DNA of 64,000 nt, from the NCBI GenBank assembly GCA_015680685.1, contig MNCI01002485.1:930439-994438 (forward strand), read 5' to 3'. The notes under the pieces were generated by a model that was not told the DNA's origin, made no database searches, and was given only the letters and a program-made list of their open reading frames with translations. The position numbers were made by a program, and so were the translations under genes. Below, one piece after another: positions 4,226 to 52,850 of the stretch (the first letter of the stretch is position 1; every line of letters begins with the position of its first letter). This DNA comes from Gnetum montanum. Its lineage: Eukaryota > Plantae > Gnetophyta.

Positions 4226-5899
4226 CTATAACATCCAACACATAACTGTTACAACCTTGTACAAATTAAAATTAAAACTTAATAATACCAAAACCATTAC
4301 AATCACCATGTCACATGAACATAACAACCTATTTCTACAACTAAATAATACTTCAACATGAAAATAACACTTAGACAAGATATTGAATAGAATAGTTAAC
4401 ACTTAATGGAAATGATAGTTTAAAATCAAAAGTGTGAAAATGATAGTTCATAACTGCAAACATGGAATTAATAGTTTAGAATCAAAATCTAATAGTGTAG
4501 AAAAACTCAAAACACAACCTAAGTTAATAAACCAAAATTCAATGAAATTGAATAACAATAACATCAAAAATAGGAACAACTGCAGTAAACAGTTAACAAA
4601 AAATATTAAATTTTTTTTAATTCTATCCAAACCACCTATAAACCCATCCCAACATCTCAATCTATCCTCAAGTTCATGGGATGTTGATAGAAAATATTTT
4701 CCAAAGTCTCAATGTTACCTATCTTCACAAGGGTAAATGCCCAATAGCCATAAAACCTTAATTTCAAGTAACTTAATGAAAAAATTTGCAAAAAATTAAC
4801 CTCTTAACAAACTTTGATGATTTCATAACCATTGGAATCATAAAACCATGAGCTATAAGCCCATAATAAATAAACATAAAAATTCTCAACCAACCCTTTA
4901 GAAAAAATTACAAAATTAACCTAACTATGGTAGTCGTAAATAAAACCCTATTTTGCACAAGCTTACAGAAACACATGCTAAGAATAAATTTTTCAAAAAA
5001 ATTTTATGATTCTACCATTGTTGGAGTTCTTGAATGATGAGTTGAATACCAATGAAATTAAAATCGAAAAATTCATAATAGTTTACTAAAAAAAATACTA
5101 AAATTATACCCAAAAATAGCCAAAAATGGAAAGCCCACTTTACATAGCCTGATGGAAAAAACCATATAAATTACCCATATGGAGAAATTGAGGGGTTAAA
5201 AAATTAAATTGACCAAAATAAAATAGAAAATAGCCATATAGCCTTAAAAAAATCAAAAAACATAATTTATTCCTTAGGAAAAAATTCATAATTAGCATTG
5301 CTTTTTTCAATGGAAAAAGCAAAAAACCCATGGAATTCATGGAAAATACCATTTATTCCAAAATGAAAACAAAACAAAACCTAAAATCCATGCAATGCCA
5401 AAAAATGACTAGACATGGCATAAACCTACAATGAGATTTTTACAAAATTCCAAAATAACTTATACACAAGCCTAGATTTGAGAAATAGAATAAACCCAAT
5501 AAATAGAATAGATGGAATAAATTCGAAAAATAGGAAGACTATGTACCTTGGATAAACTATAGTAGAACCTTTTCTAATCCTACGATGTGGAAGTTGTGAA
5601 AGATCATGAGTAGCTGCATTTGCCTCCTCTAAGGTAGGGTTCTTGGTGGAAGCCTTCCTTCACAACATGATGAATACTAGTGTAGTAAAACACTGGAAAA
5701 ACTTGGAATTCTGGCAAACCTAGGAGGATTATGCTAGCACTGGTAGTTGAATAGGTTATCACTACATTGGGACTAGTAGTAGTGGCAAGCACAAAGCTTA
5801 CAACTTGGGTGAAACTACTAAGAAGTGAGAAAAAAAATGATTTTTGCAACTTTGGAATAGTGAAAACCCACATAAACCCAAGGATCCAATGGATCCACC

Positions 5900-8170
5900 T
5901 TGTAACCTTGGTTTCCATGCACAACTCCAACTATACTTAGTGATAGAATTAGAAACTTAGACTATGTTGGATGTAAGAAAGCCATTCCATCCCAAACTTG
6001 CTAATTTCATGTGGTTCTCACTAGGTGCTAAGTAAATAAGCTAATCCCATGACTATGCTAGGATTTTGGACTACTAGGCTTGACTACACTAGGGATTAAA
6101 CTAATGAAAGCCTTTGAATAAGTGCCATATCCCATTTACCTTCACCCATGCTAAAAAACCTCATGACCAAGCCAGGTAAGAAAGTGTCAACATTCATGAC
6201 AATTGAACTACAAAAGGCCTTTTAGAATCATGTGAAAACTTGGTTTCCCATGTTACTACATTGGCCTAGAGCTAGACTACATTGGCCTAGCATAGTCGAA
6301 TGGGATCTAGTACCTTTTTCCAATTCCAAGCAATCCATACACACTGACCATTAACCCATGGAACCTTATACCCAAACTAGTAGCTAGGAGTTAGGATTAG
6401 CAATCACTGGGTAGTAGAATGACATTAAATCTTACCACAAAATCTAGCCTCCAATTGACTCCAAACATCAATTCCATCTTTTCAAACCATGGACAAATCT
6501 CTTAATAACCTAAAAAATTGGTCAAATTCATTAAATGATGCAAAAAAATGATTAAAACTCATGACTACACTGGAGGGAGGCTATGACTATGGTGACCTTG
6601 TGGAGTCACAGGGTTTGTAAATGTGACTGATCATAAAAACCATGATAAGCCTTCAAAACTTCACTTCACAGCCTTCACACCTCCCTAGGACCCCTAATGA
6701 TCTCAGACTATTGACTAAGCAGGCAAAAATCCATTAAAAGCCCATTAAAATTTAATCCCCAAGCCTAACTATGTTAAGGATTTCTTAACTATATTGTGCT
6801 AGTGTAGTTACTAATGGTGCCTAGTGTAGTCCACCTAAAAAGGTTGAAACCAATCATTTCCTAGTTAAACCCACTTCTTGAAAACCTCAAAACATAGCCA
6901 AACTAGAAACCAAGACAACACTTACCACTTTTTCCCATTTGAAACATTTTCCAACCCCAACTATGCTAGGGATTTCATGACTATGTTGGTCTAATATAGT
7001 CACTAGTCATGCCTAATGTAGTCCATGTAAACTTGACCAAAATTTGTCATAAATAACTCAAATTCACATTTGTCAAACCCTACAATCCTACTAGTGTCTA
7101 TTTTGAACATAAAACCAAGAATTTTCCATTTCTCAACCCCTAACTATGCTGCAATTTGCATGGCTACACTGGGCTAGCATAGTCATCAGTAGATTCCAAT
7201 GTAGTCTTCTTGAAAAATGCTAAAATTGGCCTTAAACAAGCCAAATTGACCTCCCAAACCCATTTGGAGCTTGCTAGGACACAAAATCATGGAAAATCAA
7301 ATCAAAAATCACCATTAATTAGTCCAAATATCTCAACTACATTGGGAATTACATGCCTACATTGGGCCAACATAATTAAGAGGTATTTGACCATTCCTAG
7401 ATCCAAGCAATCATCAAAACTAATAATTTTGATACTAAAACCCTAGCTAGTATACCAGTGACCCTAGGAGTTCATTAGCATGGTTGACAGGGCAAAGAAA
7501 CTCATCAAGATACATTTTCCATACATCACTACACAAGGGATGCCTGTGACTACATTGGGCTAGCATAGTCATAGTAGGAACATATTTTGTGGGAACATCA
7601 AAAATACTGTACCACTCATAATGGTCCAAAACTCACTCAAGAAGCCTAGAACCCTATTCCACCCCATATAGTTGCAATTCCACTTTGTTTCAACCTTGAA
7701 AAAATTCAATTTTTCATGCCTATGATGGCATCATGCATGACTACACTGGACCAACATGGTCAAATGGGAAATGCAATAAAACCCATTTTGTTGCCCAAAT
7801 TCAAGTCCAAAAATCCAATTTAGTTTTCCAATGATCTTGTGCTAACCTAGGAAGTTGATAGAGTTTGAATCCAAACCCAAAAACCTCATGAATTTATTTA
7901 TTCCATGCAACTACACTGGGGCCTACAATAACTATGTTGGCTAGCATAGTCACCAATGGAAACATGTTTTTCAACCTTCTAGGTGGTGAAAACAAAGCCA
8001 AAATTTACCAATACTCAATACCAAGCCCATGCACTAGTTTTCTAGACCATTAGAAGCCTGAAAGTGATCATACTAAGCCTAGGAAACTATCCATGAATGC
8101 TAACTACACTAGGGAATGCATGACTATGTTGGACTAGCATAGTCACTAGTAAAGCCTAGCATAGTCACAA
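5900..8170. repeat. Array of degenerate GACTACGCTGGG / CCCAGCGTAGTC motifs (CpG-decayed to ACTACAC/ACTATGC) upstream of the antisense gene of A
   Basis: Many occurrences of gactacactggg, actatgctagg, ctagcatagtc and ctagtgtagt in both orientations. Confidence 0.75.
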
Positions 8171-8824
8171 GAAAAAGTGCTAATTTTACCTCAAAAAAGC
8201 CTTGGAATAATCCCTTCATGTGTCCAAACTCCCTTGGTAACCTTGTAGCCTTATACCATGGTTCACTAAGGCCTAAAATTGGCAAAATCTAACCTTTTTT
8301 GACCAATATGAACCAGGTTTTATCACATATATTCTATTTTTATGGATTTAACCTTGTTTTAAGGTGTTTTGACTTGTTTGGATCTTGTTTTGTATTTTTG
8401 ACCTTCATTGCCATACGTTAACCTCATCTAGCCTCTACATTACTTTAGTTTCATCATATTTACCTTTTTTCTCTCTCTTATGGCCTTTTTTTATTCTTGT
8501 TTAGCCTTTGACTAATGTTAAAGTCATGTGATTTGACTATCATTTAACACCATGTAACCATGGCCAACCAATGCCTTAAACTAGCAAAAGTATAACCTTA
8601 GTTGATCATATTTGACTTTATTTTCCATATTTTTATGGTGTTCCAACTTGCTTTAACATTTATTTAACCTTATTTGGCCTTTATTCCATCTTATCTACCT
8701 TCACATACATCCTATAGCCTTGGTTGACCTTGTTCGCATTCTGTTTGACATTGAAATAACATGTGCTTGCATATTTACTAAGGTATTTTATATCATTTTA
8801 GTATTATTTACTCATTTTTACATG

Positions 8825-10520
8825 GTTCCACTTAATGTGCTTATGGTTGACATGGAGGATAGGAGTATGGATAGCTGGAAGAAAATCACTTTGCCTTTGA
8901 GTCTAAGTGAACGCCATGATGATGTTGAATAAAGTATTAATCCTAATTACCTAGATATTGAGCCTCAGGGTCTTATCAATTACATAGCCTCTATAGAGAA
9001 ACCTATAGAATGGCCTAAAAACATAGTTAAAACCCTTAACCTTGAGGCTAGGAAATTTATAGAGGACTCTCTAGTTGAGGTTCTTATCATGACACACAAT
9101 GATGAGAGGAAAACCCTAAAACTAAGTTCCTCACTAGAGCCTTAATAGGCTCAAGACATCACCAAGTTCCTACAAGATATTATTAAGGTATTTTCTAGTG
9201 ATATGAAGATATGTTAGGTTTAGAGCCACATTTAGTCTAACACAACATCATACTCGATACTAGCATTAGACTAGTTAAATAAAAGGTTCATAAGATTAGA
9301 CCTAATTTGGCCTTAGTAGTCCATGATGAAATCACAAAACTATACCTCGATGGTTTCATCAAAGTTAATTACATAGAATGGGTGTCCAACATAGTGGTAG
9401 TCCCTAGGAAAAATGGGAGTATACATATTTGCATTAATTTCTAATATTTAAATAAGGTGATCATCAAGGATGATTTTACTTTTACTAGTATTAACCAACT
9501 TATCGATACTATGGTTGGACATGCCTTATTAGCCTTTATGGATGAGTTCTTGGGTACAACTATATTTGGATTAATTCAAAGCATCAACTCAGTATGACCT
9601 TCATGACTCATTGTAGTACCTTTTGTTATACTATGATTCCCTTTAGCCTAAAGAATGCAAGAGCAACCTACCAAAGAGCAATGACATATATATTTAGTGA
9701 TTATATGATAGGTTTGATCAACGATTATGTAGATGATATAAGCTGTTAAGTCTAAAGTCATTGATGAGAATACACATGACCTTGACCTTGACCTTGACCT
9801 TGTGTTAAAATGATGTCTTAGATTATGAGCTTAGGCTTAATCCAAAGAGTGCGTATTTGGTGTTAAAACTAGTAAGATTTTTGGATTTGTAGTATTTGAA
9901 GTAGGAATATGTATTGATCCTAATAAGGTTAATGCCATATCCAACTTGGTAGCACCTACTAACCTTAATAAACTTAAGGGATTGCAAGGAAAAATACAAT
10001 TTATATGTTGGTTTATCGCTAGGCTTATAAATAAGTTACAACCCATGTAACACTTGTGTAAGAAAGTAGTTCACTATGAGTGGATGACTAAATGATAAGA
10101 AGCCTTTCAAAACCTTAAGCAAGAGTTGGCATAGCTACTAGTAGTCTATCCTCCATAAGAGTATAAACCTTTTTACATCTACCTTGCTATCTCTAATAGG
10201 TCTATTTCCTCTCTACTCTATTAAAAATGAGATGATGGAGCAAAGTCACCTGTATACTACTTAAGCCATGCATTAGTTACACATGAGATCCAATATATTG
10301 AAGTGGAGAAGTATTGTCTAGCACTAGTCATCTTATTGAAGAAGTGAAGATACTACCTCTTTAGGAGCTAGGTTAACATCATTTGCGAAGATAATGTGCT
10401 TAGAGCCATAATGATGAACATCTATGAAAGTATTTGTATAGTCCATTGGAAAGTCATAATAATAGAGTTTGACCTTCATTACATTTCTCAAGCCTCAATG
10501 AAAGGTCAAGATATCATCAC
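8825..10520 (+). pseudogene. pol: Reverse transcriptase + RNase H of element A (degenerate)
   Basis: Remnant motifs EWVSNIVVVPRKNG, FMD, PFSLKNAxATYQRAM, DYVDD, LNPKECVFG, and RH PVYYLSH...YxEVEKYCLALV; many stops and frameshifts. Confidence 0.9.
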
Positions 10521-10619
10521 AAAACTCACTGTTTCATCATTAGATGACCATGTGACTATAGATCGTGAATTCCCATATGACCACATCAACATCATTAGCC
10601 AAGAAACTGAGGGGCATGA

Positions 10620-10990
10620 GGTAATCATGCACTTTCATGGAGCTTCAACTACCCATGGGGCTAGTTTTGTTGTCATCATAACATTCCCATATGATGAAAT
10701 CCAATCCTTCACTCACTGTTTTAAATTTCCTTATACCACCAATGTAGTGAAGCATGAGGGTTTGATTAGGGAAGTGATGGTAGCTCGTGACCAAGGACTA
10801 AAACTTTTAATGATCAAATTTGATTCACAAATTGTGGTTAAACAAGTAACCAAGGTTTATGCATGTAAGCCAAACATTTGCAACCCTACTATGACCTAGC
10901 AAAGAAACTAATGCAATAATTTATAGACATTGATGTCCAACATGCCCTAAACCAAGAACACTATAGTTGATGTTGTTGCAACACAAGCCC
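10620..10990 (+). pseudogene. Additional archaeal-type RNase HI (aRH) domain of element A, diagnostic of the Tat clade
   Basis: ORF 10396-10899: MHFHGAS...TTNVVKHEGLI...FDSQIVVKQV, matching the FDGAS/TNNxAEYEAL/GDSQLVVxQV consensus. Confidence 0.85.
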
Positions 10991-11231
10991 TTAGTATGAT
11001 GGCAGATGTGTTTAGCAAGTTGCACACCTTGACTATGGACTACACTATCCCCATCACATAGAGCACTAAGGATACCTCTGTGGCCATAGTTCATACTACT
11101 CCCCAAAAGAAATGGTACGATGATATCAAATTTTACCATATGCATGGTGAACATTCACAAAGCCTAACTATTGCTCAAAAAGACATTGTACATAAATCAT
11201 CAAAATAGTATTTTATAGTAGGCAATAACAC

Positions 11232-11400
11232 AGCAACGGCGGCAACAGCAGCAACGGCAGCAGCAACGGCGGCAATGGTAGCAACGGCAGCAGCGGCAGC
11301 AACGACCGCAACAGCACCGATGGCGGCCACGGCTGCAACGGATGCTACGGCTACGGCTGTCGCGGAGCCGGCGGCAGCTACGGCCACGGCCATGGTGGCC
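11232..11400 (+). repeat. (GCAACG/GCAGCA/GCGGCA)n microsatellite-like tract at the L1 5' end, encoding an Ala/Thr-rich repeat
   Basis: agcaacggcggcaacagcagcaacggcagcagcaacgg... Confidence 0.85.
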
Positions 11401-12974
11401 GACGGTGCGGTTGGGCCTGCGGCGGCCGCCACGGGGGGCGCCGGGACCCCCACGGCTTTGGGTGTGGTGTTTCAGGGGTCGGGTGTTGGCGCGGCCGTGG
11501 GATCCCCGGAGCCCGCTGCTCCGCGCGGGGCCATCGAGGGCCACTCCCGCTCCAACCACACCTTGCGCCTTCGCATCCGAACCCCCCCAGACGGCGTGCG
11601 CACAATGGAACGGAGTCTCATTGGTCGGTTCGTCTCCAAGGGGATCTACCCCCGCTTAGATCTGATTCGGCGCTGGGTCAAGGAGCAGTGGAAGTTGGAG
11701 GGCGTGACCGTCCGGAGCCTCTCGGAGGACCTGGTTCTCTTCGTCCTCCCCTCCCTGTAGGCCCGCGACTCAGTCCTTCTCAGCAAACCTTGGTTCTACA
11801 GGGCCCGGGGCCTCGCACTGACCCCCTGGCGCACCGGGGCGCATCGAGAACCCGATTTGTTCACCCGCGCCCCCATTTGGATCCGGGTGGCCGGTATCCC
11901 GTGGGAGTTATGGGGCCTTGAGTTTTTGCGGGAGGTGGCAGGACATTTCGGCGAGTTCATCACCTTCGACCGGGTCACGCGGTCGCTGGACAGGTTGGGC
12001 TATGCCCGCTTCTGTGTTTGGCGCAGCTTGGCTGAGCACGACTTGGTCTGGGAGGTCGTTTTGGAACTCCCGGGGGGTGAGGAATCCCTCCAAGTTACCT
12101 ACGAAAACCTGGATGATGGGGACCTGTCCGTGCGCTGCCCGCCCCCCCGCACGGCCAGACCGGGGGGTGCGAGTGCTGTGGTAAGTCGGGCCACCACGAG
12201 GTAGACTGTCGCTTTCACAAGGCCCGCTCGACTAATCCTGCCCGCCAGCTCTTCGAGGAGGGCAACTAGGTCACCGTGGCCCGCAAGGGGCGTCTGCGGC
12301 CCCTGCCCTCCCACCCACCTCCCCCNNNNNNNNNNNNNNNNNNNNNNNNNNNNNNNNNNNNNNNNNNNNNNNNNNNNNNNNNNNNNNNNNNNNNNNNNNN
12401 NNNNNNNNNNNNNNNNNNNNNNNNNNNNNNNNNNNNNNNNNNNNNNNNNNNNNNNNNNNNNNNNNNNNNNNNNNNNNNNNNNNNNNNNNNNNNNNNNNNN
12501 NNNNNNNNNNNNNNNNNNNNNNNNNNNNNNNNNNNNNNNNNNNNNNNNNNNNNNNNNNNNNNNNNNNNNNNNNNNNNNNNNNNNNNNNNNNNNNNNNNNN
12601 NNNNNNNNNNNNNNNNNNNNNNNNNNNNNNNNNNNNNNNNNNNNNNNNNNNNNNNNNNNNNNNNNNNNNNNNNNNNNNNNNNNNNNNNNNNNNNNNNNNN
12701 NNNNNNNNNNNNNNNNNNNNNNNNNNNNNNNNNNNNNNNNNNNNNNNNNNNNNNNNNNNNNNNNNNNNNNNNNNNNNNCACTAGTCGTTCCCGCCTCCCC
12801 TCACGTCGACCAACTACTCCCCCACACTCTCTCTCCCTCGATACCATCTACGGGTCCCCCGCCTGGTCACCGCCTCGATCCCCATCCCCGATCCCTTCCC
12901 CCCCATCCACATCCCCCGAGCCACAACCGATGGGGGATTGGGCCAACATCGTTCGCCGGAGTACCAGGACCTGA
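11275..12974 (+). pseudogene. L1 ORF1 (DUF4283-like), broken by TAG stops at 11758 and 12202 and an assembly gap
   Basis: ERSLIGRF...RRWVKEQWKL...KPWFY...LTPW...APIWIRVAGIPWELW...GEFITFD...YARFCV...VTYENL, followed by a Pro/Ser-rich tail. Confidence 0.88.
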
Positions 12975-13158
12975 CAGTGCAATGCGCCGCCCTCCCCCAC
13001 TGGGGGGCCTGCTGCACCCCCGTGCTCCGGGATAGGGAGGGCCGCCTAGGCCGCCCGACCGCAGCCCGCTCCAGAGGCCGGCAAGCCCAGCGTAACATCG
13101 ATTTGGGTCACCAACAGACGTTACGGGAGTACTACCCGTGCCACCCCTCTGGTTGCAC

Positions 13159-14054
13159 ATGAAGGTTCTCAGCTGGAATTGTCGGGGGCAGGGTACCCCC
13201 TATAAACGAAATACCCTACGCAATATTGTCCGAGAGGAAGAGTGTGATGTGGTCTATCTCCAGGAAACCAAGCTGCAGGTTGCGGAATCCGGTCACCTCC
13301 AGTGGACGGACTGGACCACGTACCTGCACCCCTGCCAAGGCCGGGCCGGCGGCCTGGCTATTCTTGCTCGGCCGGCTTCTAGTCTGGTGGATGCCTCCTC
13401 GTGGACCATCACGGTTCGCCTTCATGACCATGGATATTGGTTGACCAATTTCTATGGGGCGCAGGCCTGGGAGCTTCGGCTCCAGGAGTTGAATCGAGTG
13501 GCCTCGCTGGTGCCGGACCACAGCTCCTGGGTGGTTTTTGGAGACTTCAATCAACGTTTGTACCCCTGGGAGAAATCCGGGGGGGTTCCCCCCCCCCGTC
13601 GGGGGCGCCTGATTTCATGGAGTTCCTAGAGCGCTCGTCTCTTGTTGATCTGCCCATTGAGAACTGCCGCTTCACTTGGAGTAAACGGCGGCTGGGGGTG
13701 CACCACGTTCTCACCTGTATCGACCGGGTGTGTGTGAGTTCCGCTCTGCTCCTTAGCGCCGCCATCACCGTGACTGGGCAGGAGAGGGCTACTTCGGATC
13801 ACCGCTCGCTCGTGGTGACAGTTGGCCCGCCCCCGCCCCGGGCCCCACGCCCTTTTCGGTTCGAACCTTCGTGGCTGGCCAAGCCGTGGCTTCGCCCGCT
13901 GGTGGAAGATGTCTGGGCCGACTACCGGCCGGGTTGGACGGACCCCCGGACCTTCCTCAAAGAGGCCCTCCATCGGCTCAAGTGGGCCATCCGGGCCCTC
14001 CCGGTGGGGGAAAGGTTTTCGTTTCGTGCGAGCCAAAGGCTGGCTCGGGCGTAG
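13159..14054 (+). pseudogene. L1 ORF2 N-terminal AP-like endonuclease (frameshift in the C-run near 13590; TAG at 14052)
   Basis: MKVLSWNCRG, LQETK, NFYG, WVVFGDFN, FTW, IDRV, SDH, PFRFEPSWL. Confidence 0.93.
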
Positions 14055-17000
14055 CTCGGACGCCTCCAGGAGCGGCAAGAGGATGGGGAGGACCTGCACA
14101 CGGAAGAGATGTGCCTCCTTCGCCTACTCCAGAGTCTCGACAGCGAGGAGGAGCTCTATTGGCGGCAGCGGTCCCGGGTTCGGTGGCTCCACGAGGGGGA
14201 CCGGCACACGAAGTTCTTCTTCGCCATGGCCAAGGCCCGGGGCGATGCCCGCATCCGCAGCCTCCGTTCCCAGGATAGGGGGGTGGTTACTGATCCGCGG
14301 GGGATCACGGGCGAGCTCTGTGGCTACTGGGGTAGGATTTGGGCCAAGCGTGCCACCCGGCCCATTTCGGTCCCTGTGGCGAAGGTGCTCACGGCTGCGG
14401 ACAATCTGCGCCTTCTGGCTCCCTTCTCCATGACCGAGTTGACCACCACCATCAACAACATGCTCGGTGGTAAAGCGCCGGGCCCGGACGGTTGGTCTCT
14501 GGAGTTCTTCAAAGCCTTTTTGGATATTGTGGGCCCCAATCTCCTTGACGCTTTTAACGTCATGCTGGCTAGACGGCAAGTGCGGCGGGAGCTCAACTGC
14601 TCGCGCATCATCTGCATCCCCAAGCAGCTGAATGCAGACCGCCTTGAGCACTTTCACCCTATTGGTGTGTGCAATGTCCTCATCCGCATTTTCTCCAAAC
14701 TTTTGGTCAACAGCCTTGGCCCCCTCCTTCCTCGGTTGGTTGGTCACAATCAGGCGGGATTCGTCCAGGGTAGGACCCTCCAGGACCAGGTCCTTCTTAT
14801 GCAGGAGGTCATTCACTCCCTCCGCACCACGGGGTTTCCGGGACTCTGTCTCAAGCTGGATATCGCGAAGGCATACGACACGCTTAGTTGGGAGGCTCTT
14901 CATGATATCATGCTTAGGAAAGGCTTCGACCATGGTTTTATCCGGCTGTGTGTGCATCTCCAGTCCTCCGCCGGGTTTTCATTTGACGTGGGGGGACGGC
15001 TTTGGGGGTTCTCCTCCCCTGGTCGTGGTCTGAGGCAGGGTGACCCCCTGTCTCCTTTGCTTTTCATCATCGCCATGGACCTCATGCAGTCCTACTGTCG
15101 CGCCTCGGGGGTGGAGGGCCTTGACATTGCGGGGGTGGCTTGCCGCGTTGAGCACTACGCGGACGACACCATGCTTCTTTGNNNNNNNNNNNNNNNNNNN
15201 NNNNNNNNNNNNNNNNNNNNNNNNNNNNNNNNNNNNNNNNNNNNNNNNNNNNNNNNNNNNNNNNNNNNNNNNNNNNNNNNNNNNNNNNNNNNNNNNNNNN
15301 NNNNNNNNNNNNNNNNNNNNNNNNNNNNNNNNNNNNNNNNNNNNNNNNNNNNNNNNNNNNNNNNNNNNNNNNNNNNNNNNNNNNNNNNNNNNNNNNNNNN
15401 NNNNNNNNNNNNNNNNNNNNNNNNNNNNNNNNNNNNNNNNNNNNNNNNNNNNNNNNNNNNNNNNNNNNNNNNNNNNNNNNNNNNNNNNNNNNNNNNNNNN
15501 NNNNNNNNNNTGGTCTATCGGCTCTCTCGGGCTCGGGGGAAGTGTAGTCAGTGGGGCCGTATCGTGCGACGGAAGTACATGCCCTGGATCTCCGGCTCGC
15601 ACATCTCGAGGCCTTGGTCGTCTCTGTGCCAGCACGTGCGGTGGATGTTGGACAGGAACTGGCTCCACCTCGAGCCTCGTGCCCTTTTGGCCCATAAATA
15701 CCCTCCTGAGGACGGTTGGATGGCGGTTTGGCGCGGGTGGCTCCCCGAAAAAGTGAAGATCTTCCTGTGGCTGTTGAAGTCTGCTGCGCTCCCCGTTCGT
15801 GTCTTCCTGCAGCAGCGCAGCGTTTTACAGGACCCCACGTGTCCGCGGTGTGGCCACGCCCCTGAAACTCTTAACCACTTTGTTTATGATTGCCCCTGCA
15901 TGTGCGCCACTTGGCGCGCATGCAGAAGACCCCCTCCGCGGCGATTTGACGGTGATTCCTGGTCGATGCTTTTACTCTGGCTCGCCTGGAAGGCGCGGAA
16001 CCGCACCATGTTCTCGCAGGTAGCTACCCCCTCCCCTCAGCAGCTAATTCAGCAGACGCGCTGGGCGTGGTGCGAGACGGTGGCCGCGATGGGGAAGATG
16101 CCACTGTTTGAGCCTGGCTGTGTGGATTTCCAGGGGGATGGGGAGCTGTGGCGGATGGTTTGCCAGTGCGGATGGGATGTGATGCTGCCGTGGTTGGTCG
16201 GGGACCCTGACCTGTCTGACAATTCCTTCTTTACCAACTGGCGCGGCGATCAAACCTTCTTCCGTGGACGAGTTATTCGCCTGACAGAGGCTGATTTGGC
16301 AAACTACCTGGGGGTCCCGGCCGCTGGGGAGACCATCTCGCCTACTTCCCGTGGCCTCCATAACTCGGCGGTTTTCTTCCATNNNNNNNNNNNNNNNNNN
16401 NNNNNNNNNNNNNNNNNNNNNNNNNNNNNNNNNNNNNNNNNNNNNNNNNNNNNNNNNNNNNNNNNNNNNNNNNNNNNNNNNNNNNNNNNNNNNNNNNNNN
16501 NNNNNNNNNNNNNNNNNNNNNNNNNNNNNNNNNNNNNNNNNNNNNNNNNNNNNNNNNNNNNNNNNNNNNNNNNNNNNNNNNNNNNNNNNNNNNNNNNNNN
16601 NNNNNNNNNNNNNNNNNNNNNNNNNNNNNNNNNNNNNNNNNNNNNNNNNNNNNNNNNNNNNNNNNNNNNNNNNNNNNNNNNNNNNNNNNNNNNNNNNNNN
16701 NNNNNNNNNNNNNNNNNNNNNNNNNNNNNNNNNNNNNNNNNNNNNNNNNNNNNNNNNNNNNNNNNNNNNNNNNNNNNNNNNNNNNNNNNNNNNNNNNNNN
16801 NNNNNNNNNNNNNNNNNNNNNNNNNNNNNNNNNNNNNNNNNNNNNNNNNNNNNNNNNNNNNNNNNNNNNNNNNNNNNNNNNNNNNNNNNNNNNNNNNNNN
16901 NNNNNNNNNNNNNNNNNNNNNNNNNNNNNNNNNNNNNNNNNNNNNNNNNNNNNNNNNNNNNNNNNNNNNNNNNNNNNNNNNNNNNNNNNNNNNNNNNNNN

Positions 17001-17323
17001 NNNNNNNNNNNNNNNNNNGGCGCCCCCCCGCAGTGGGAGGTTGCTGCCGCCAAGGCGGCGGAGCAGCGGTTGGAGGAGGCTCGGTGGGCTGTGGCGCTGG
17101 CCGAATGGCGGGCCGACCACGAAACCCAGCTCCGGGAGCAGGCGCAGCAGCTGAATAGGCAGCATACGCTTGCGATGGAGACCCTGCATGCCCAGATCAC
17201 AGATGAGCTCTGGGATCGGCTCAGGGAGGAGCTGCGGCAGGATGAGGCGGACCGGCAGGCCCGGGAGGTGGCGGCCTGGGAGGAGTAGGAGCGGTTGCAG
17301 GAGGAGGAGCTGCAGCGGCAGCG
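14055..17323 (+). CDS. L1 ORF2 reverse transcriptase + zf-RVT + unusual C-terminal PMD/Transposase_32-like domain and coiled coil (contains gaps; TAG at 17286)
   Basis: WRQRSRVRWLHEGDRHTKFF, KAPGPDG, QAGFVQGR, KLDIAKAYD, GRGLRQGDPLSPLLF, YADD; zf-RVT CPRCG...ETLNH...C; WKARN. Then GWDVML...FFTNW...FRGRVIRLTEADLANYLGVPAAGE and an E/Q/R-rich helix. Confidence 0.9.
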
Positions 17324-17795
17324 GNNNNNNNNNNNNNNNNNNNNNNNNNNNNNNNNNNNNNNNNNNNNNNNNNNNNNNNNNNNNNNNNNNNNNNNNNNNN
17401 NNNNNNNNNNNNNNNNNNNNNNNNNNNNNNNNNNNNNNNNNNNNNNNNNNNNNNNNNNNNNNNNNNNNNNNNNNNNNNNNNNNNNNNNNNNNNNNNNNNN
17501 NNNNNNNNNNNNNNNNNNNNNNNNNNNNNNNNNNNNNNNNNNNNNNNNNNNNNNNNNNNNNNNNNNNNNNNNNNNNNNNNNNNNNNNNNNNNNNNNNNNN
17601 NNNNNNNNNNNNNNNNNNNNNNNNNNNNNNNNNNNNNNNNNNNNNNNNNNNNNNNNNNNNNNNNNNNNNNNNNNNNNNNNNNNNNNNNNNNNNNNNNNNN
17701 NNNNNNNNNNNNNNNNNNNNNNNNNNNNNNNNNNNNNNNTCGTGTAACTTTCTTTCAGTAATACACTCCCGAACATTCTCTCAAAAAAAAAACAC

Positions 17796-18660
17796 TCTAT
17801 GTTGATGGTCCTACAATGGAATACTATTAGTGTGCTTGGGTAAAACCAAAGCCCACACAATCCTAGAGTAAGTTCACTAGGGTGTTTGTGGGGGACATAT
17901 AGGACCTAGAGCAATGATTGGTAAGATTAGATAGTTAGGCTATTACTGATTCTATATAGAAAGAATTTCCTATAGAAGATTAAAACTTGTGACATGTGCC
18001 AACAACATAGTAACCTTATACACGTATTGCCAACTAAGTTACACACCACTCAAATAACTTGGTTATTTCAATGATGGGGGTTGGATATCATTAGACATAT
18101 AACACCTAAGTCTTCCATATGGCATAAATTTATCATAATAGCAATTGAATACTTTACGAAGTGAACTAAAGCTATTTCCCTAAAAAGAAAAACATCTAAT
18201 TTTTTTTTAAATTTATACTTGACAACACAGTAGCTTGTTTTGAAATACCTATGATCATAGTCATTGAAAATGAGCCATAGTTTAGTAGCCAAAAAATGAA
18301 AAATTTTTGTTACAACCTAGTAATTAAGAATTCCTTCTCATCACCATATTACCCTCAAGGGAATGGACAAGCTGAAGTAAGTCATAAGGCCATCATATAC
18401 ATACTCAAGAAGATGTTGAACAATAATAAGCACAAGTGGCATGAGTAGCTTGTCCATGCACTTTGGGCCTATGGAATAACTTATTGAACTATAACCAATG
18501 TAATCTCATATAGGTTGGTTTATGATTTTGAAGCTATTTTACCTCTTGAATTGTAGGTGCCATCACTCCAAGTAGCCTTATTTAACTTTATGAATGATGA
18601 ACAAAATAAGGAGCTATGTACCATGGAACTGGACTTAGTGGAGGAGCAAGGGGAGCTACA
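17796..18660 (+). pseudogene. Integrase of element A (degenerate)
   Basis: Zinc-binding remnant (VHxGVCGGH...KTCDMCQQH), QxWGLDII, IEYFTK, SSPYYPQGNGQAEVSHK, HALWAY. Confidence 0.88.
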
Positions 18661-22559: not shown

Positions 22560-23640
22560 CATCTCGTTCTCATCCATGTCAGCTGTTCTAAATGCTCCAT
22601 TTCTATAGGCTTTGGTGATAAGAAAGGGCCCTTCCTAGTTGGCTAAGAATTTGTCCACATGCTCATGGATGACCTTGAGGATGAGGTTCCCCTCCTTGAT
22701 CCTGTGCATGGTCAAGTTATGATGATGTCACTTCTATCTCTTCTTATGGTGCTTAGTGTGAGCAAGCTCTTGCATACACTGCTTCTCCACTAAATTTAGG
22801 ACTACCATCCCCAACTACTTACTCTACTCATTGTTGATGAAGTTGGTCAAGGCTACTTAGAGTGATGACACCTATAATTCAAGAGGTAAAATAGCTTCAA
22901 AACCATAAACAAGGCTATAAGGCGTCATGTTGATTACTTTGAGATAGGTTATTCTATATTCCCCTAGTTTATGGATAAGCCACTCATGCCACTTCCACTT
23001 GCTATTGTTGAGCATCTTCTTGAGTAATTTGATGATGGCTTTGTTGCTTCTACTTTTTCATTGGCTTGATGGTAGTAATGCAATGAGAAAAAAAGCTTAA
23101 TGCCTAGGTTGTGACAAAAATCATTGGTTTCTTGGCTACTAAATTAGGATCCATTATTTGTGAATCTAGTCATGGGTATGCCAAAATGAGCTACAATGTT
23201 GTCTAGGATAAACTTGCAAACTTGTTTAGGTGTGTTCTTCCTTAGGAGAATAGCCTCAACCCACTTGGTAAAGTATTTGATTATGGTGATGATGAAGCTA
23301 TGTCCCATGGTAGACTTAAGCTTTATGGGTCCAATGATATCCAACCCCCACCATTGAAATGACCATGTTATTTGGGTTATATGCAACTTAGTTGGCAGTA
23401 CATGTATTAGGTTGCTATAATGTTGGCATGTGTCACATTGCTTAACCTTTTATAGGTAGTTATTTTTTATATGAGGCCAATAGTAACATGACCATCTAAT
23501 TTTATTAGCCATGGCTCTAGGTCCTATATGTCCTCAAAAAATACCCTCATGAACCTCCTCTAGGATTATTCTAGCTTCAATTTTACCTAAGCACTCTAGG
23601 AGTATTCCATCATAGGATCATCAACATAATGTGTTATCAC
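22560..23640 (-). pseudogene. Integrase of element B
   Basis: ORF 23144-23386: WSFQWWGLDIIGPI...YFTKWVEAI...HFGIPM...TNNGS. Confidence 0.92.
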
Positions 23641-23869
23641 CTATTATGACATACTACTTAATGGCATCCTTCTAAGAAGTAGTCATTCCTTGTGAGGATT
23701 CACCATGCATAAGGTAAAATTTGATATTGTCATACCACTCTTTGGAAGTAATAGTATGAATGATGGCCATAAAGGTAACCTTAGTGTTTGGTTTGATGGA
23801 AATAGTACACTCCACAATGAAGGTGGATAACTTGCTAAACACATATGGTGTCAAACAAAGCGATAATGT

Positions 23870-24240
23870 TGCAATTGCATTAGCTATGGAATTTTCATTT
23901 CTAGGTATGTGTTGGATATCAACATCTATAAATTTTGATAACAATTACTTTCCTAGGCCATAGTAAGGTTGTAAATGCTTAGCTTCACATGCATAGACTT
24001 CAGTCACTTGGTTAACCATGAGTTGTGAATTTCCTTTAATGGCTAGGCATCTAATTTTCAAGTCACAAGCTACCATTATTGCTCTAATCAAACCCTCATA
24101 TTCTATTATGTTGTTGGTACATGAGAACCAAAAATGATAGCCAAAGGGCTGGATTTCACTAGATGGAAATGTTATGATGGTAGCAGCATTAGCTTCATGG
24201 GTGGTTGAAGCTTTGTCGAAGTTCATGAATACCTCATAAC
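23870..24240 (-). pseudogene. aRH (archaeal-type RNase HI) of element B
   Basis: MNFDKAS...SCTNNIIEYEGLI...KGNSQLMVNQV...QHIPRNENSIANAIA. Confidence 0.9.
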
Positions 24241-24329
24241 CCTTGATCACTTGGCTAACTGTATTAATGTGCTCATCAAGGAACTCAGGATTTATGGCTG
24301 CTTGGTCATTAATAGGTGAAACTATGAGC

Positions 24330-26020
24330 TGTACAACTATAGCTTGACATTTTGTTGAGGATTTAGAGATGTAATTGAGGTTAAACTTTGTAGTTGTCGC
24401 TTTCCATCAAGCTATAAAACTACTTTTGTAGATGTTGGTCATTATGGATCTAAGTATGTTGTCCTTACAAATTATGTTGACTTGGCTTTTGAAGAGGTAG
24501 TATCTCCATTTCTTCAAAGAGAAGACTAGTGCAAGATAATACTTCTTCACTTTAGTGTATTGAGTCTTGTGGGCCACTAACTTATGGCTAAGATAGTGTA
24601 CAAGCATTTCTGCTCTGTCATCATGTTTGTGATAGAGTATAGAGGCAATGGATGTATTATAAATGGTCAAATAAATGTAAAATAGTATACCCTCTTACAG
24701 AGCATAGACTATTGGTAGTTGTGTCCATTCTTACTTAAGGTTTTCAAAGGCTTCTTAGCATTGAGCCATCCACTCATAGCGAACTCCTTTCTTAAGCAAG
24801 CGGTGCATGGATTGTAACTTATCTGTAAGCTTAGTGATAAATCTACAAATAAATTATAATCTATCTTGTAATCCTTGAAGCTCCTTCAGGTTGGTAGGTG
24901 CTTCCAATTTGGATATGACCTTCATCTTATTATGATCTACATGTATCCCTACTTCAAAGACTACAAAACCAAGCGTCTTACCAATCTTGACATCAAAGAA
25001 ACACTTCTTAGGATTGAGCATAAGCTCATATTTGAGGCATCATTTAAGCAAAAGATCTAGTCCATTAACATGATATTAGCTATTTTAGACTTCACGGCTA
25101 TGTCATCTACATAATCATTAAGCAAACCTAACATGTAATCATTGAAGATATAGGCCATGGATCTTTGGTATGTCACTGCATTATTATTAAGGCTAAAGGG
25201 CATCATGGTATAACAAAAGGTATCCCATGAGGTCATGAAGGTTATATTGAGGTGGTGATTTGGGTTGATCCTAATTTGGTTATATCTCAAGAACCCATCC
25301 ATAAAGGACAACAAGGGATGTTTAGCTATAGTATTGATAAGTTGATCAATACTAGGCAAAGGGAAGTCATCCTTGATAGTTTCATTATTTAGGTTTCAAA
25401 AATCAATGCAAATATGGATACTCCCATTTTCCTTTGGGACTACTACTATGTTGGATACCCATTCTGCATAACTAATAGCCCTAATGAAACTTACTTGGTA
25501 AATCTTTGAGATTTCATCACAAACTACCAAGGCTAAATTAGGTGTAATCTTGTGCACTTTTTGTTTAACTAGTCTAATGCTAGGCTCCAGTATGATGTTG
25601 TGTTGGATTAGATGTGGGTCTAGGCCTAGCATATCTTCATATGACCTAGCAAATACCTTAATATTATTTTGTAAGATTTTGGTGATGTCTTGGGCACATT
25701 GAGGCTCTAGTGAGGAACTTAGTTTAAGAGTTTTCTCCTCAGAACTATATGTTATGATTGGAACCTTAACTAGAGATTCTTCGATTATGTCTCCTACTCC
25801 TAAGTCAATGGTTTTGACTAGGTTTTCAGGCCATTTTAGAGGTTTCTCTATCGAGGCTATGTGGTCTACAAGACTCTTAGGCTCAAGATATAGGAAACTA
25901 GGGTAAATACACTATTTAATATCATCATGAGGTTCATGTAGACATAAAGGAAAATTGATTTTCTCCTAGGTACTCATACTTTGATCTTGCATATCAGCCA
26001 AAAGCATATTAAGTGGAACC
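24330..26020 (-). pseudogene. pol: RT + RNase H of element B
   Basis: MLGLDPHLIQHNI...EWVSNIVVVPKENG...CIDF; PSIDQLIN...SFMDGFLRYNQI...MPFSL...DYVDDI; HYLSHKL...YTKVKKYYLAL. Confidence 0.93.
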
Positions 26021-51182: not shown

Positions 51183-52850
51183 AATATGACATGGCAATGC
51201 AAAACTAGTTTTTCTCACCTCTAGTTCTCACGAGACCTCATGGCAATATCAAGTGATGCATTGAGCCACATTGCTTAGACCTTGAGCCTACAACCTACAT
51301 TGAATACATAACATCCATAGGGACACCACTAGATTAGTTTGACCATCTAGTCAAGGCTCTTAATCCAAAGGCAAGGGATGCTACAGAGGATCCCCTTGTT
51401 GAGATCCCTATGGCAACACCTAACGACAAGGTGAGAACATTAAAATTAAGCTTCTAATTAGAGTCCTAGTGTGTCTAAGACATTACTAAGGTGCTTAATG
51501 ATAACATCAAGTCATTTGCATGCTCATATGATGACATGCTAGGCCTAGATCCTTGGATAGTCTAGCACAATATCATTCTCTATTCCTACATTAAACCAAT
51601 AAAATAGAAAGCATGCAAGGTTTAGCCTAAGGTGGTGTTGGCATTCCATGATGAGATCACCAAGATTTATAAAATTGATTTCATCCAAGCTATTAACTAT
51701 GTAGACTAGCTCTCCAACATCATAGTTGTGCCTAAGAAAAATGGAAGTATATGCATATGCATATACTTCCAAGACCTAAATAAGGTAGCCATCAAAGATG
51801 ACTTCCTATTGCCTAGTATCGATCAACTGATCAATACAATAGCTAGACATGCCTTGTTATCCTTCATGGATGGGTTGTTGGGCTATAACCAAATTAGGAT
51901 CAACCGTAAGCACCAACTCAGAATGACCTTCATGACTCCTAGGAGTATTTTTTGGTATACCATGATGTCTTTTGGACTCAAAAATGCAGGAGCAATGTAT
52001 CAATGTGTAATGACATATGTATTTAGTGATTACATGCTAAGCTTTCTCAATGAATACTTCAATGACATTGCAGTTAAGTCCAAAGTGTTGAACAATCATG
52101 CAAATGATCTAAACTTAGTGCTCAAATGTTTCTTAAAACACGATCTTAGGTTAAACCCCAAGAATTATGTTTTCAGTGTTAGAATGGGATATATGATCAA
52201 TTTTGTAGTATAAAAAGTAGGAATACATGTAGACCCTAACAAGGTTAAGGTCATAGCCAACTTAGCATCCCTGACCAACCTTAAGGAGCTATGAGGATTG
52301 CAAGGTAGGTTGTAGTTCATACATAGGTTTATCACATCGTTAACCAACAAGTTACAACCAATGCAACATCTACTTAAGAAAGGAGCCCACTTCAAGTGGA
52401 AAGTTCAATGTCAACAAGCATTTAACAACCTTAAGTAAGAGCTGGCACAACTACCTACGGTTCACCCTTCTCAAGGAGATAAACCTTTCTACATCTACCT
52501 TGCCACTTCTAACACATCCATCACTTCTATGCTTTTCCAAAAGCAAGATAATGGCACAAAGGTCCTAGTTTACTACCTGATCCATGCATTAGTAGCCCAT
52601 GAAGTGAAATACAATGATGTGGAAAATCATTTCCTTGCACTAGTCTTCTCACTAAACAAGTAGAAACATTACCTTTTCTGTAGTTAAGTTAATATCATTT
52701 GCAAAAACAACATACTCTAAGCAATCATAATGAACATCTATGAAAGTAGTAGTAATGCATGTTGGAAAGAAATCATAGTAGAGTTTGACCTACACTACAT
52801 TGTGCAATCCTCAACAAAAGGTCAAGCTATAGCTGCACAACTCATAGTGT
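51183..52850 (+). pseudogene. pol: RT + RNase H of element C
   Basis: ORF 51728-52213: PKKNG...DLNK...PSIDQLIN...SFMDGLLGYNQI...MSFGLKNAGAMYQ...LRLNPK. Confidence 0.93.

Follow-up and report, generated by a model that had tools for sequence, protein, structure and literature searches.

In the sections of the literature consulted, ORF2 of plant L1 retrotransposons is described as encoding reverse transcriptase (RT), by itself or accompanied by RNase H, and PMD/Transposase_32 domains are on record solely for LTR elements, MULEs and host genes. An L1 copy in the 64,000-nucleotide stretch of DNA analysed here (the window) raises the question of what an L1 may carry at this position, as its ORF2 continues past the zf-RVT motif into an extension that the initial annotation had read as a plant mobile domain (PMD) or Transposase_32-type domain plus coiled coil, in place of RNase H.

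An L1 copy within a decayed Gypsy region

The element occupies 11232-17790 (Table 1). A DUF4283 ORF1, an APE-type endonuclease, an RT and a zf-RVT motif follow one another in this order (Pfam, all above cut-off), completed by poly-A and a 5-bp TSD; these features place the element among plant L1. Its ends are confirmed by contigs from other copies of the host repeat, in which the site is unoccupied and which connect 11232 to about 17800. The host repeat is a decayed Gypsy pol region (9000-11226 and 17796-18600) with a weak RVT_3 match at 10372-10896. GC content is 57-70% by segment in the L1 vs 35% in the flanks, and the CpG observed/expected ratio is 0.64-0.85 vs 0.06-0.15; GC3 is 0.70 in the RT, 0.68-0.72 in the extension and 0.86 in a charged segment further downstream, compared with about 0.3 in the flanks. 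Further decayed Gypsy pol pieces lie in the window at 23147-25395 (minus strand) and 51710-52660 (plus strand), the former with RT, RNase H, RVT_3 and integrase matches (Pfam), a dual RNase H layout that we take to be that of Tat-type elements; the insertion site of the L1 belongs to an element similar to this one.

Table 1. Parts of the L1 element and its insertion site, in window coordinates.
Feature	Position	Strand	Remarks
5' TSD, 5 bp	11227..11231	+	exact length ambiguous owing to A-run
ORF1, decayed	11232..13162	+	PF14111 (DUF4283) E 1.6e-16; gap 12326-12778
ORF2 start, endonuclease and reverse transcriptase	13159..15181	+	PF03372 E 6.8e-12, PF00078 E 4.8e-20
ORF2 zf-RVT, WKARN block, linker	15513..16088	+	PF13966 E 7.7e-14; stop-free into extension
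Extension (extra domain), first 98 aa	16089..16382	+	Met-initial; cut by N gap; likely Transposase_32/ATHILA-type, lead only
N gap, 636 N	16383..17018	.	would contain remainder of extra domain
E/A/Q/R-rich segment, probably helical (coiled coil or single helix)	17019..17324	+	TAG at 17286
Element 3' end with 8-nt poly-A (17783-17790)	17740..17790	+	contig-covered in three runs
3' TSD, 5 bp	17791..17795	+	

ORF1 consists of an Ala/Thr-rich N-terminus encoded by 9-bp repeats, DUF4283, a Cys/His knuckle-like motif and a Pro-rich tail. It opens directly at the 5' TSD within the Ala/Thr-coding repeat (11232-11400), with no visible 5' UTR; contig joints indicate that the length of this repeat differs between copies, and the present copy may be 5'-truncated inside it. 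At 13159-13162, the sequence ATGA overlaps the ORF2 start codon with a stop of the upstream frame, an arrangement that suggests coupled termination and re-initiation.

This copy is dead: stops interrupt it at five sites (11758, 12267 and 12782 in ORF1, 14052 in ORF2, 17286 in the charged segment), and the frame shifts at least twice (near 12140 and near 13600, the second time within 13590-13626), always outside the extension. Four N gaps interrupt it, none of them spanned by any listed contig. The YADD and W..I.R.KY blocks stand 132 aa apart across a 329-N gap (15156-15552), whereas their spacing in plant L1 is roughly 190 aa, and we therefore doubt the gap sizes: either these are underestimated, or the L1 family has a short thumb region.

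The reading frame beyond zf-RVT

The claim that zf-RVT and the WKARN block run without a stop into the extension in gap-free sequence is borne out: 15513-16382 is a single stop-free frame of 290 codons, in which zf-RVT takes up residues 61-134, the WKARN block lies at 15987, and a Met at 16089 is followed by 98 codons up to the gap at 16383. The remaining two forward frames of 16056-16382 contain 2 and 5 stops. Since 482 of 20,000 Markov shuffles of 16009-16382 also leave a fixed frame open, the open frame by itself is only modest evidence.

The extension has a distant homologue. An exhaustive search of 1.84 billion proteins returned two matches, one of them P0004 (E 7.4e-6), a 91-aa ORF from a Welwitschia mirabilis transcript that is 36% identical to the extension over about 90 aa, end to end; the alignment score of 129 compares with 24.8 +/- 4.3 (maximum 55) for 5000 shuffles. 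On sequence grounds, the extension is a real protein domain. As a lone match, P0004 suggests a gymnosperm host but does not prove it. The top match of this search, P0003, was dropped as spurious (a 2788-aa tandem repeat without a relevant family). Word-index protein searches with the extension retained 0 of 89 longer-protein candidates and 0 of 2 of near length, and those with the two-sequence alignment 0 of 640, all of them weak negatives; locus scans of metagenome and viral contigs detected no relative.

The main rival reading treats the accessory module as a third ORF in its own right, or as a product of internal initiation at Met 16089, which would act in trans, as the additional ORFs in LTR elements do, and whose join to ORF2 is incidental or confined to some copies. 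We regard this as unlikely. P0004 begins at the residue aligned with Met 16089, and the sequence upstream of that Met, including zf-RVT, is unmatched by it (score 25 against the first 192 aa); this start may, however, be a gene-caller choice. A purine precedes the Met at -3 and a G follows it at +4, and the PF20167 ORFs of Athila are free-standing. Eleven codons between the WKARN Trp (15987) and the Met are one substitution short of a stop, but none of those changes occurs among the variants listed. The seven majority variants listed in 16021-16121 (shares 0.54-1.0) make no stop, five of them being synonymous when taken singly, and no indel is listed there, none of the nine recorded falling between 14277 and 17034. 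Because the variants were drawn from 40 of 768 records, and loose ends from 24 of 2033, a family stop is possible outside those listed.

The Met itself is crossed by a contig spanning 16056-16217, which starts 33 letters before it and, having 17 other letters and 7 gap letters in 155, derives from another copy; this contig, with its 7 gap letters, is the one piece among the 32 listed that bridges the Met by at least 31 letters on each side. A fusion of the extension to ORF2 across the family is probable, and we rate it as rather likely that active copies of this L1 family make one fused protein.

The extra domain and its occurrence in the family

The assignment to PMD or Transposase_32 gained no profile match. 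Pfam returned 0 families at E<=10 both for 16089-16382, where the domain is seen only in part, and for P0004; NCBIfam returned nothing for either, and no member of PF20167 was found at E<=0.001 among the 1.84 billion proteins. In the ESM Atlas, the three top clusters for the extension (0.92-0.93) are without a common family, and the nearest clusters that have one are PF20167 at 0.90 (161 of 256 features; 16% of members) and ATHILA (PF03078) at 0.87. P0004 leads to the same families (PF20167 at 0.89, with 49% of members, and 0.88; ATHILA at 0.88, with 87%), and 7 of the 10 best family matches agree. These scores are at the level of leads, with 138-161 of 256 features in common vs 170 typical of same-family matches. 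It is mainly because the leads of the extension and P0004 agree that we favour the PF20167/ATHILA reading.

Of the names originally proposed, PF20167 thus retains weak support, alongside PF03078, from two Atlas searches (0.87-0.90), whereas PMD (PF10536), like the DUF1985 of VANC, has no Pfam match and is absent among the Atlas families listed. The extension displays a GW..L / F..N.W / RG..I.L....A..LG.P pattern, which we take to resemble the PF20167/PF03078 families. We do not file it as a member of PF20167 or PMD; its sequence suggests a likely Transposase_32/ATHILA link, and we lean towards placing it with PF20167/PF03078.

Structure searches and a search for a donor yielded no match within their scope. 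PDB sequence searches gave no match for the extension or the alignment (P0001 gave only noise, at E>0.6). AlphaFold2 models reached a mean pLDDT of 39.7 from a single sequence and 48.4 from two, too poor for fold comparison, and Foldseek searches with these models against PDB and BFVD gave no match at E<=0.001 (VIA: best Z 2.6). Among 125 stop-free flank ORFs of at least 62 aa in the window, none matched PF20167, PF03078 or PF10536, and the A1 profile, searched in the window, found only itself.

A second rival reading accepts that the extension is family-wide and fused, and takes it to be a novel domain without relationship to Transposase_32, ATHILA or PMD, its Gly/Trp/hydrophobic pattern having arisen by chance. 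We put this on the same low footing as a separate ORF: the missing profile matches, the absence of PF20167 members at the threshold given and the lack of a common family in the best Atlas clusters all speak for it, but the same two related families come out top among named clusters, independently, for two proteins with no more than 36% identity, and every score is lowered by the fact that just the first 98 aa of a domain of roughly 180 aa can be seen.

The preferred reading, a Transposase_32/ATHILA-type domain joined to ORF2, supposes that the extension belongs to the L1 family and not to this copy alone. Nine runs containing the stretch were listed of 22, under five organism labels and none with half of its words, and four of them were compared (X1, X3, X7 and X9). 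X9 yielded 9 contigs only, all on the RT; X1, X3 and X7, from three differently labelled organisms, yielded 5,743-9,928 contigs each, mostly 80-95% alike. Median summed contig depth per non-N base in these three runs (X1/X3/X7) was 2868/2302/721 for ORF1, 6604/6073/2157 for endonuclease-RT, 2934/3356/510 for zf-RVT, 5038/5402/1232 for the extension and 4833/4325/841 for the charged segment; summed contig depth does not measure copy number, and one of the runs could be the source of the window itself. Single contigs are mostly at depth 3-10, and the L1 family is therefore high-copy. Only 1-2% of the aligned contigs continue into unlike sequence. Transitions predominate among the differences between copies, which therefore do decay. 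Separately, a depth peak of about 12,500 in X1, with many loose ends, marks the endonuclease start (13174-13217), where other, more distant L1 families have only this motif in common.

These data leave little room for a one-off 3' transduction, nested insertion or mis-scaffold that placed an unrelated repeat on a single copy. Its proponents could point to the four N gaps, which no listed contig crosses, and to listed depth in X1, which over 16062-16121 drops from about 1100 to about 300. The junction nevertheless lies in gap-free sequence and is crossed by the diverged contig, the TSD brackets the whole element, and composition resembles the L1 and not the flanks. With depth like that of the L1 core (in three of the four runs), no stop among the listed variants and L1-like GC3, we consider such a chimera highly improbable; the codon bias of the L1 and the distant homologue likewise uphold the original view that the extension is no accident of one copy, and it is very probably real and family-wide.

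The charged segment at 17019-17324 is family-wide like the extension. E, A, Q and R make up 63 of its 102 residues, but the heptad pattern is weak (6 of 22 a/d positions hydrophobic in the best register). The initial annotation had placed an E/Q/R-rich coiled coil in the same ORF, upstream of poly-A and TSD: the segment, the poly-A and the TSD are all present, whereas membership of the same ORF would require the 636-N gap to be exact. Because the length of that gap is unreliable and this copy has a stop at 17286, fusion of the segment to ORF2 is unproven.

Related accessory domains and a possible function

The extension starts with a Pro-Gly...Asp-Gly spacing that we take to be like an RNase H N-terminus. 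A highly diverged RNase H, the usual occupant of this position in Ta11-type L1 (PMC5348765, in the parts consulted), is nonetheless the least credible reading of all and already largely refuted, as the candidate Asp is absent in P0004, the visible 98 aa have no RVT_3 or RNase H match in Pfam, though decayed RVT_3 pieces elsewhere in the window do match, and hhalign against two of those pieces gave 0.05% probability (E 0.79), a weak test with two sequences in both profiles; within the visible 98 aa, RNase H is thus unsupported, in line with the initial annotation.

Plant L1 elements with an extra C-terminal domain are known, in the same source, for RNase H (Ta11-type, archaeal-like). The present element resembles Ta11-type L1 in its DUF4283 ORF1 and in an endonuclease-RT-CCHC ORF2 that carries a further domain C-terminal to the cysteine motif; it differs in that the added domain is not RNase H (Pfam, profile test) and is followed by a charged helical segment. 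Its likeness to the additional ORFs of Athila (PF20167/PF03078) lies in the nearest named Atlas clusters and in an Athila protein with predicted coiled-coil oligomers (PMC11728184, PMC13547354). The sections consulted describe PF20167 as a relative of Athila ORF1, found in a sunflower ORF of 487 aa with a predicted nuclear location (PMC11728184); for comparison, the sequence from Met 16089 through the last gap here offers about 550 codons. Models of the Athila and VANC proteins show pentamers formed by coiled coils, and VANC is said to resemble MAIN (PMC13547354). Unlike the Athila ORFs, which are free in LTR elements, the extension sits in a non-LTR element, in frame with RT and with no HMM match.

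PMD (PF10536; MAIN/MAIL1) and VANC (DUF1985) are TE-borne accessory domains tied to silencing or anti-silencing, and provide a functional analogy only, as neither is among the Pfam or listed Atlas matches here. In the parts consulted, the PMD of MAIL1 is reported to resemble DUF1985 of VANC, with DNA binding predicted (bioRxiv 2024.09.27.615353), PMD is described from Gypsy, MULE/VANDAL and angiosperm host genes (PMC5418596, PMC9289625, PMC8616336), and additional ORFs are reviewed for LTR elements (PMC7264820). Insect R1/TRAS LINEs also bear a foreign domain at the ORF2 C-terminus, in their case a viral SF1 helicase for which silencing suppression has been proposed (PMC4686597, as far as consulted), but differ in clade, host kingdom and domain.

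A LINE with a PMD/Transposase_32-type domain was not found in the portions of the literature searched; these exclude Repbase, Dfam and subscription papers, so that prior annotation is possible. A survey of L1 domains in 503 genomes mentions no PMD in the main text consulted, and two of its supplementary files lack PMD, ATHILA and DUF1985 alike (PMC5203782); the parts consulted of PMC8275611, PMC6338049 and bioRxiv 2026.08.24.746577 contain nothing on such a domain in LINEs. An L1 with a probable LTR-type accessory tail is therefore probably new by architecture, the pairing of L1 with this domain being absent from the literature searched.

We propose that the extra domain would be a diverged Transposase_32/ATHILA-type accessory module, possibly from a Gypsy-type accessory ORF, placed in frame after the zf-RVT end of ORF2. 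The C-terminus of ORF2p would then be a module of up to about 550 aa, in which a globular domain of this type is succeeded by the charged helix, which would end the same protein and might oligomerise it. By analogy, the module would act in the nucleus, where it would attach to DNA or chromatin and help the L1 family escape silencing. Taken as a whole, that is, as a conserved in-frame extra domain in a high-copy L1, likely of Transposase_32/ATHILA type, that binds DNA or chromatin and aids silencing escape, we would give this proposal an even chance.

Function is its weakest step and proceeds by analogy with VANC, MAIN and the Athila protein. Anti-silencing is a tentative possibility, favoured over tethering to insertion sites, which we think unlikely; the kept CpGs of the L1 fit anti-silencing and a young family equally. 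That PF20167 might have the PMD fold is a step of the present analysis, and in the parts of the literature consulted we found no statement that connects PF20167/ATHILA with PMD/VANC. The fullest version would have a gymnosperm L1 lineage, old enough for a Welwitschia relative, fuse a Gypsy Athila/Transposase_32 protein and a coiled coil to its RT, gaining a VANC-like module for anti-silencing or chromatin targeting, to which it owes its high copy number; this we hold to be doubtful.

If true, a fixed fusion of this kind in a LINE would amount to an exchange of accessory modules across retroelement orders, and would extend the PMD/Transposase_32 domain group to a likely gymnosperm host. The fusion would also offer a clean test of the role of the domain, with silencing, the rate of transposition and the choice of target scored after removal of the tail. 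Should the domain have been misnamed, there is still a conserved new domain on a high-copy L1.
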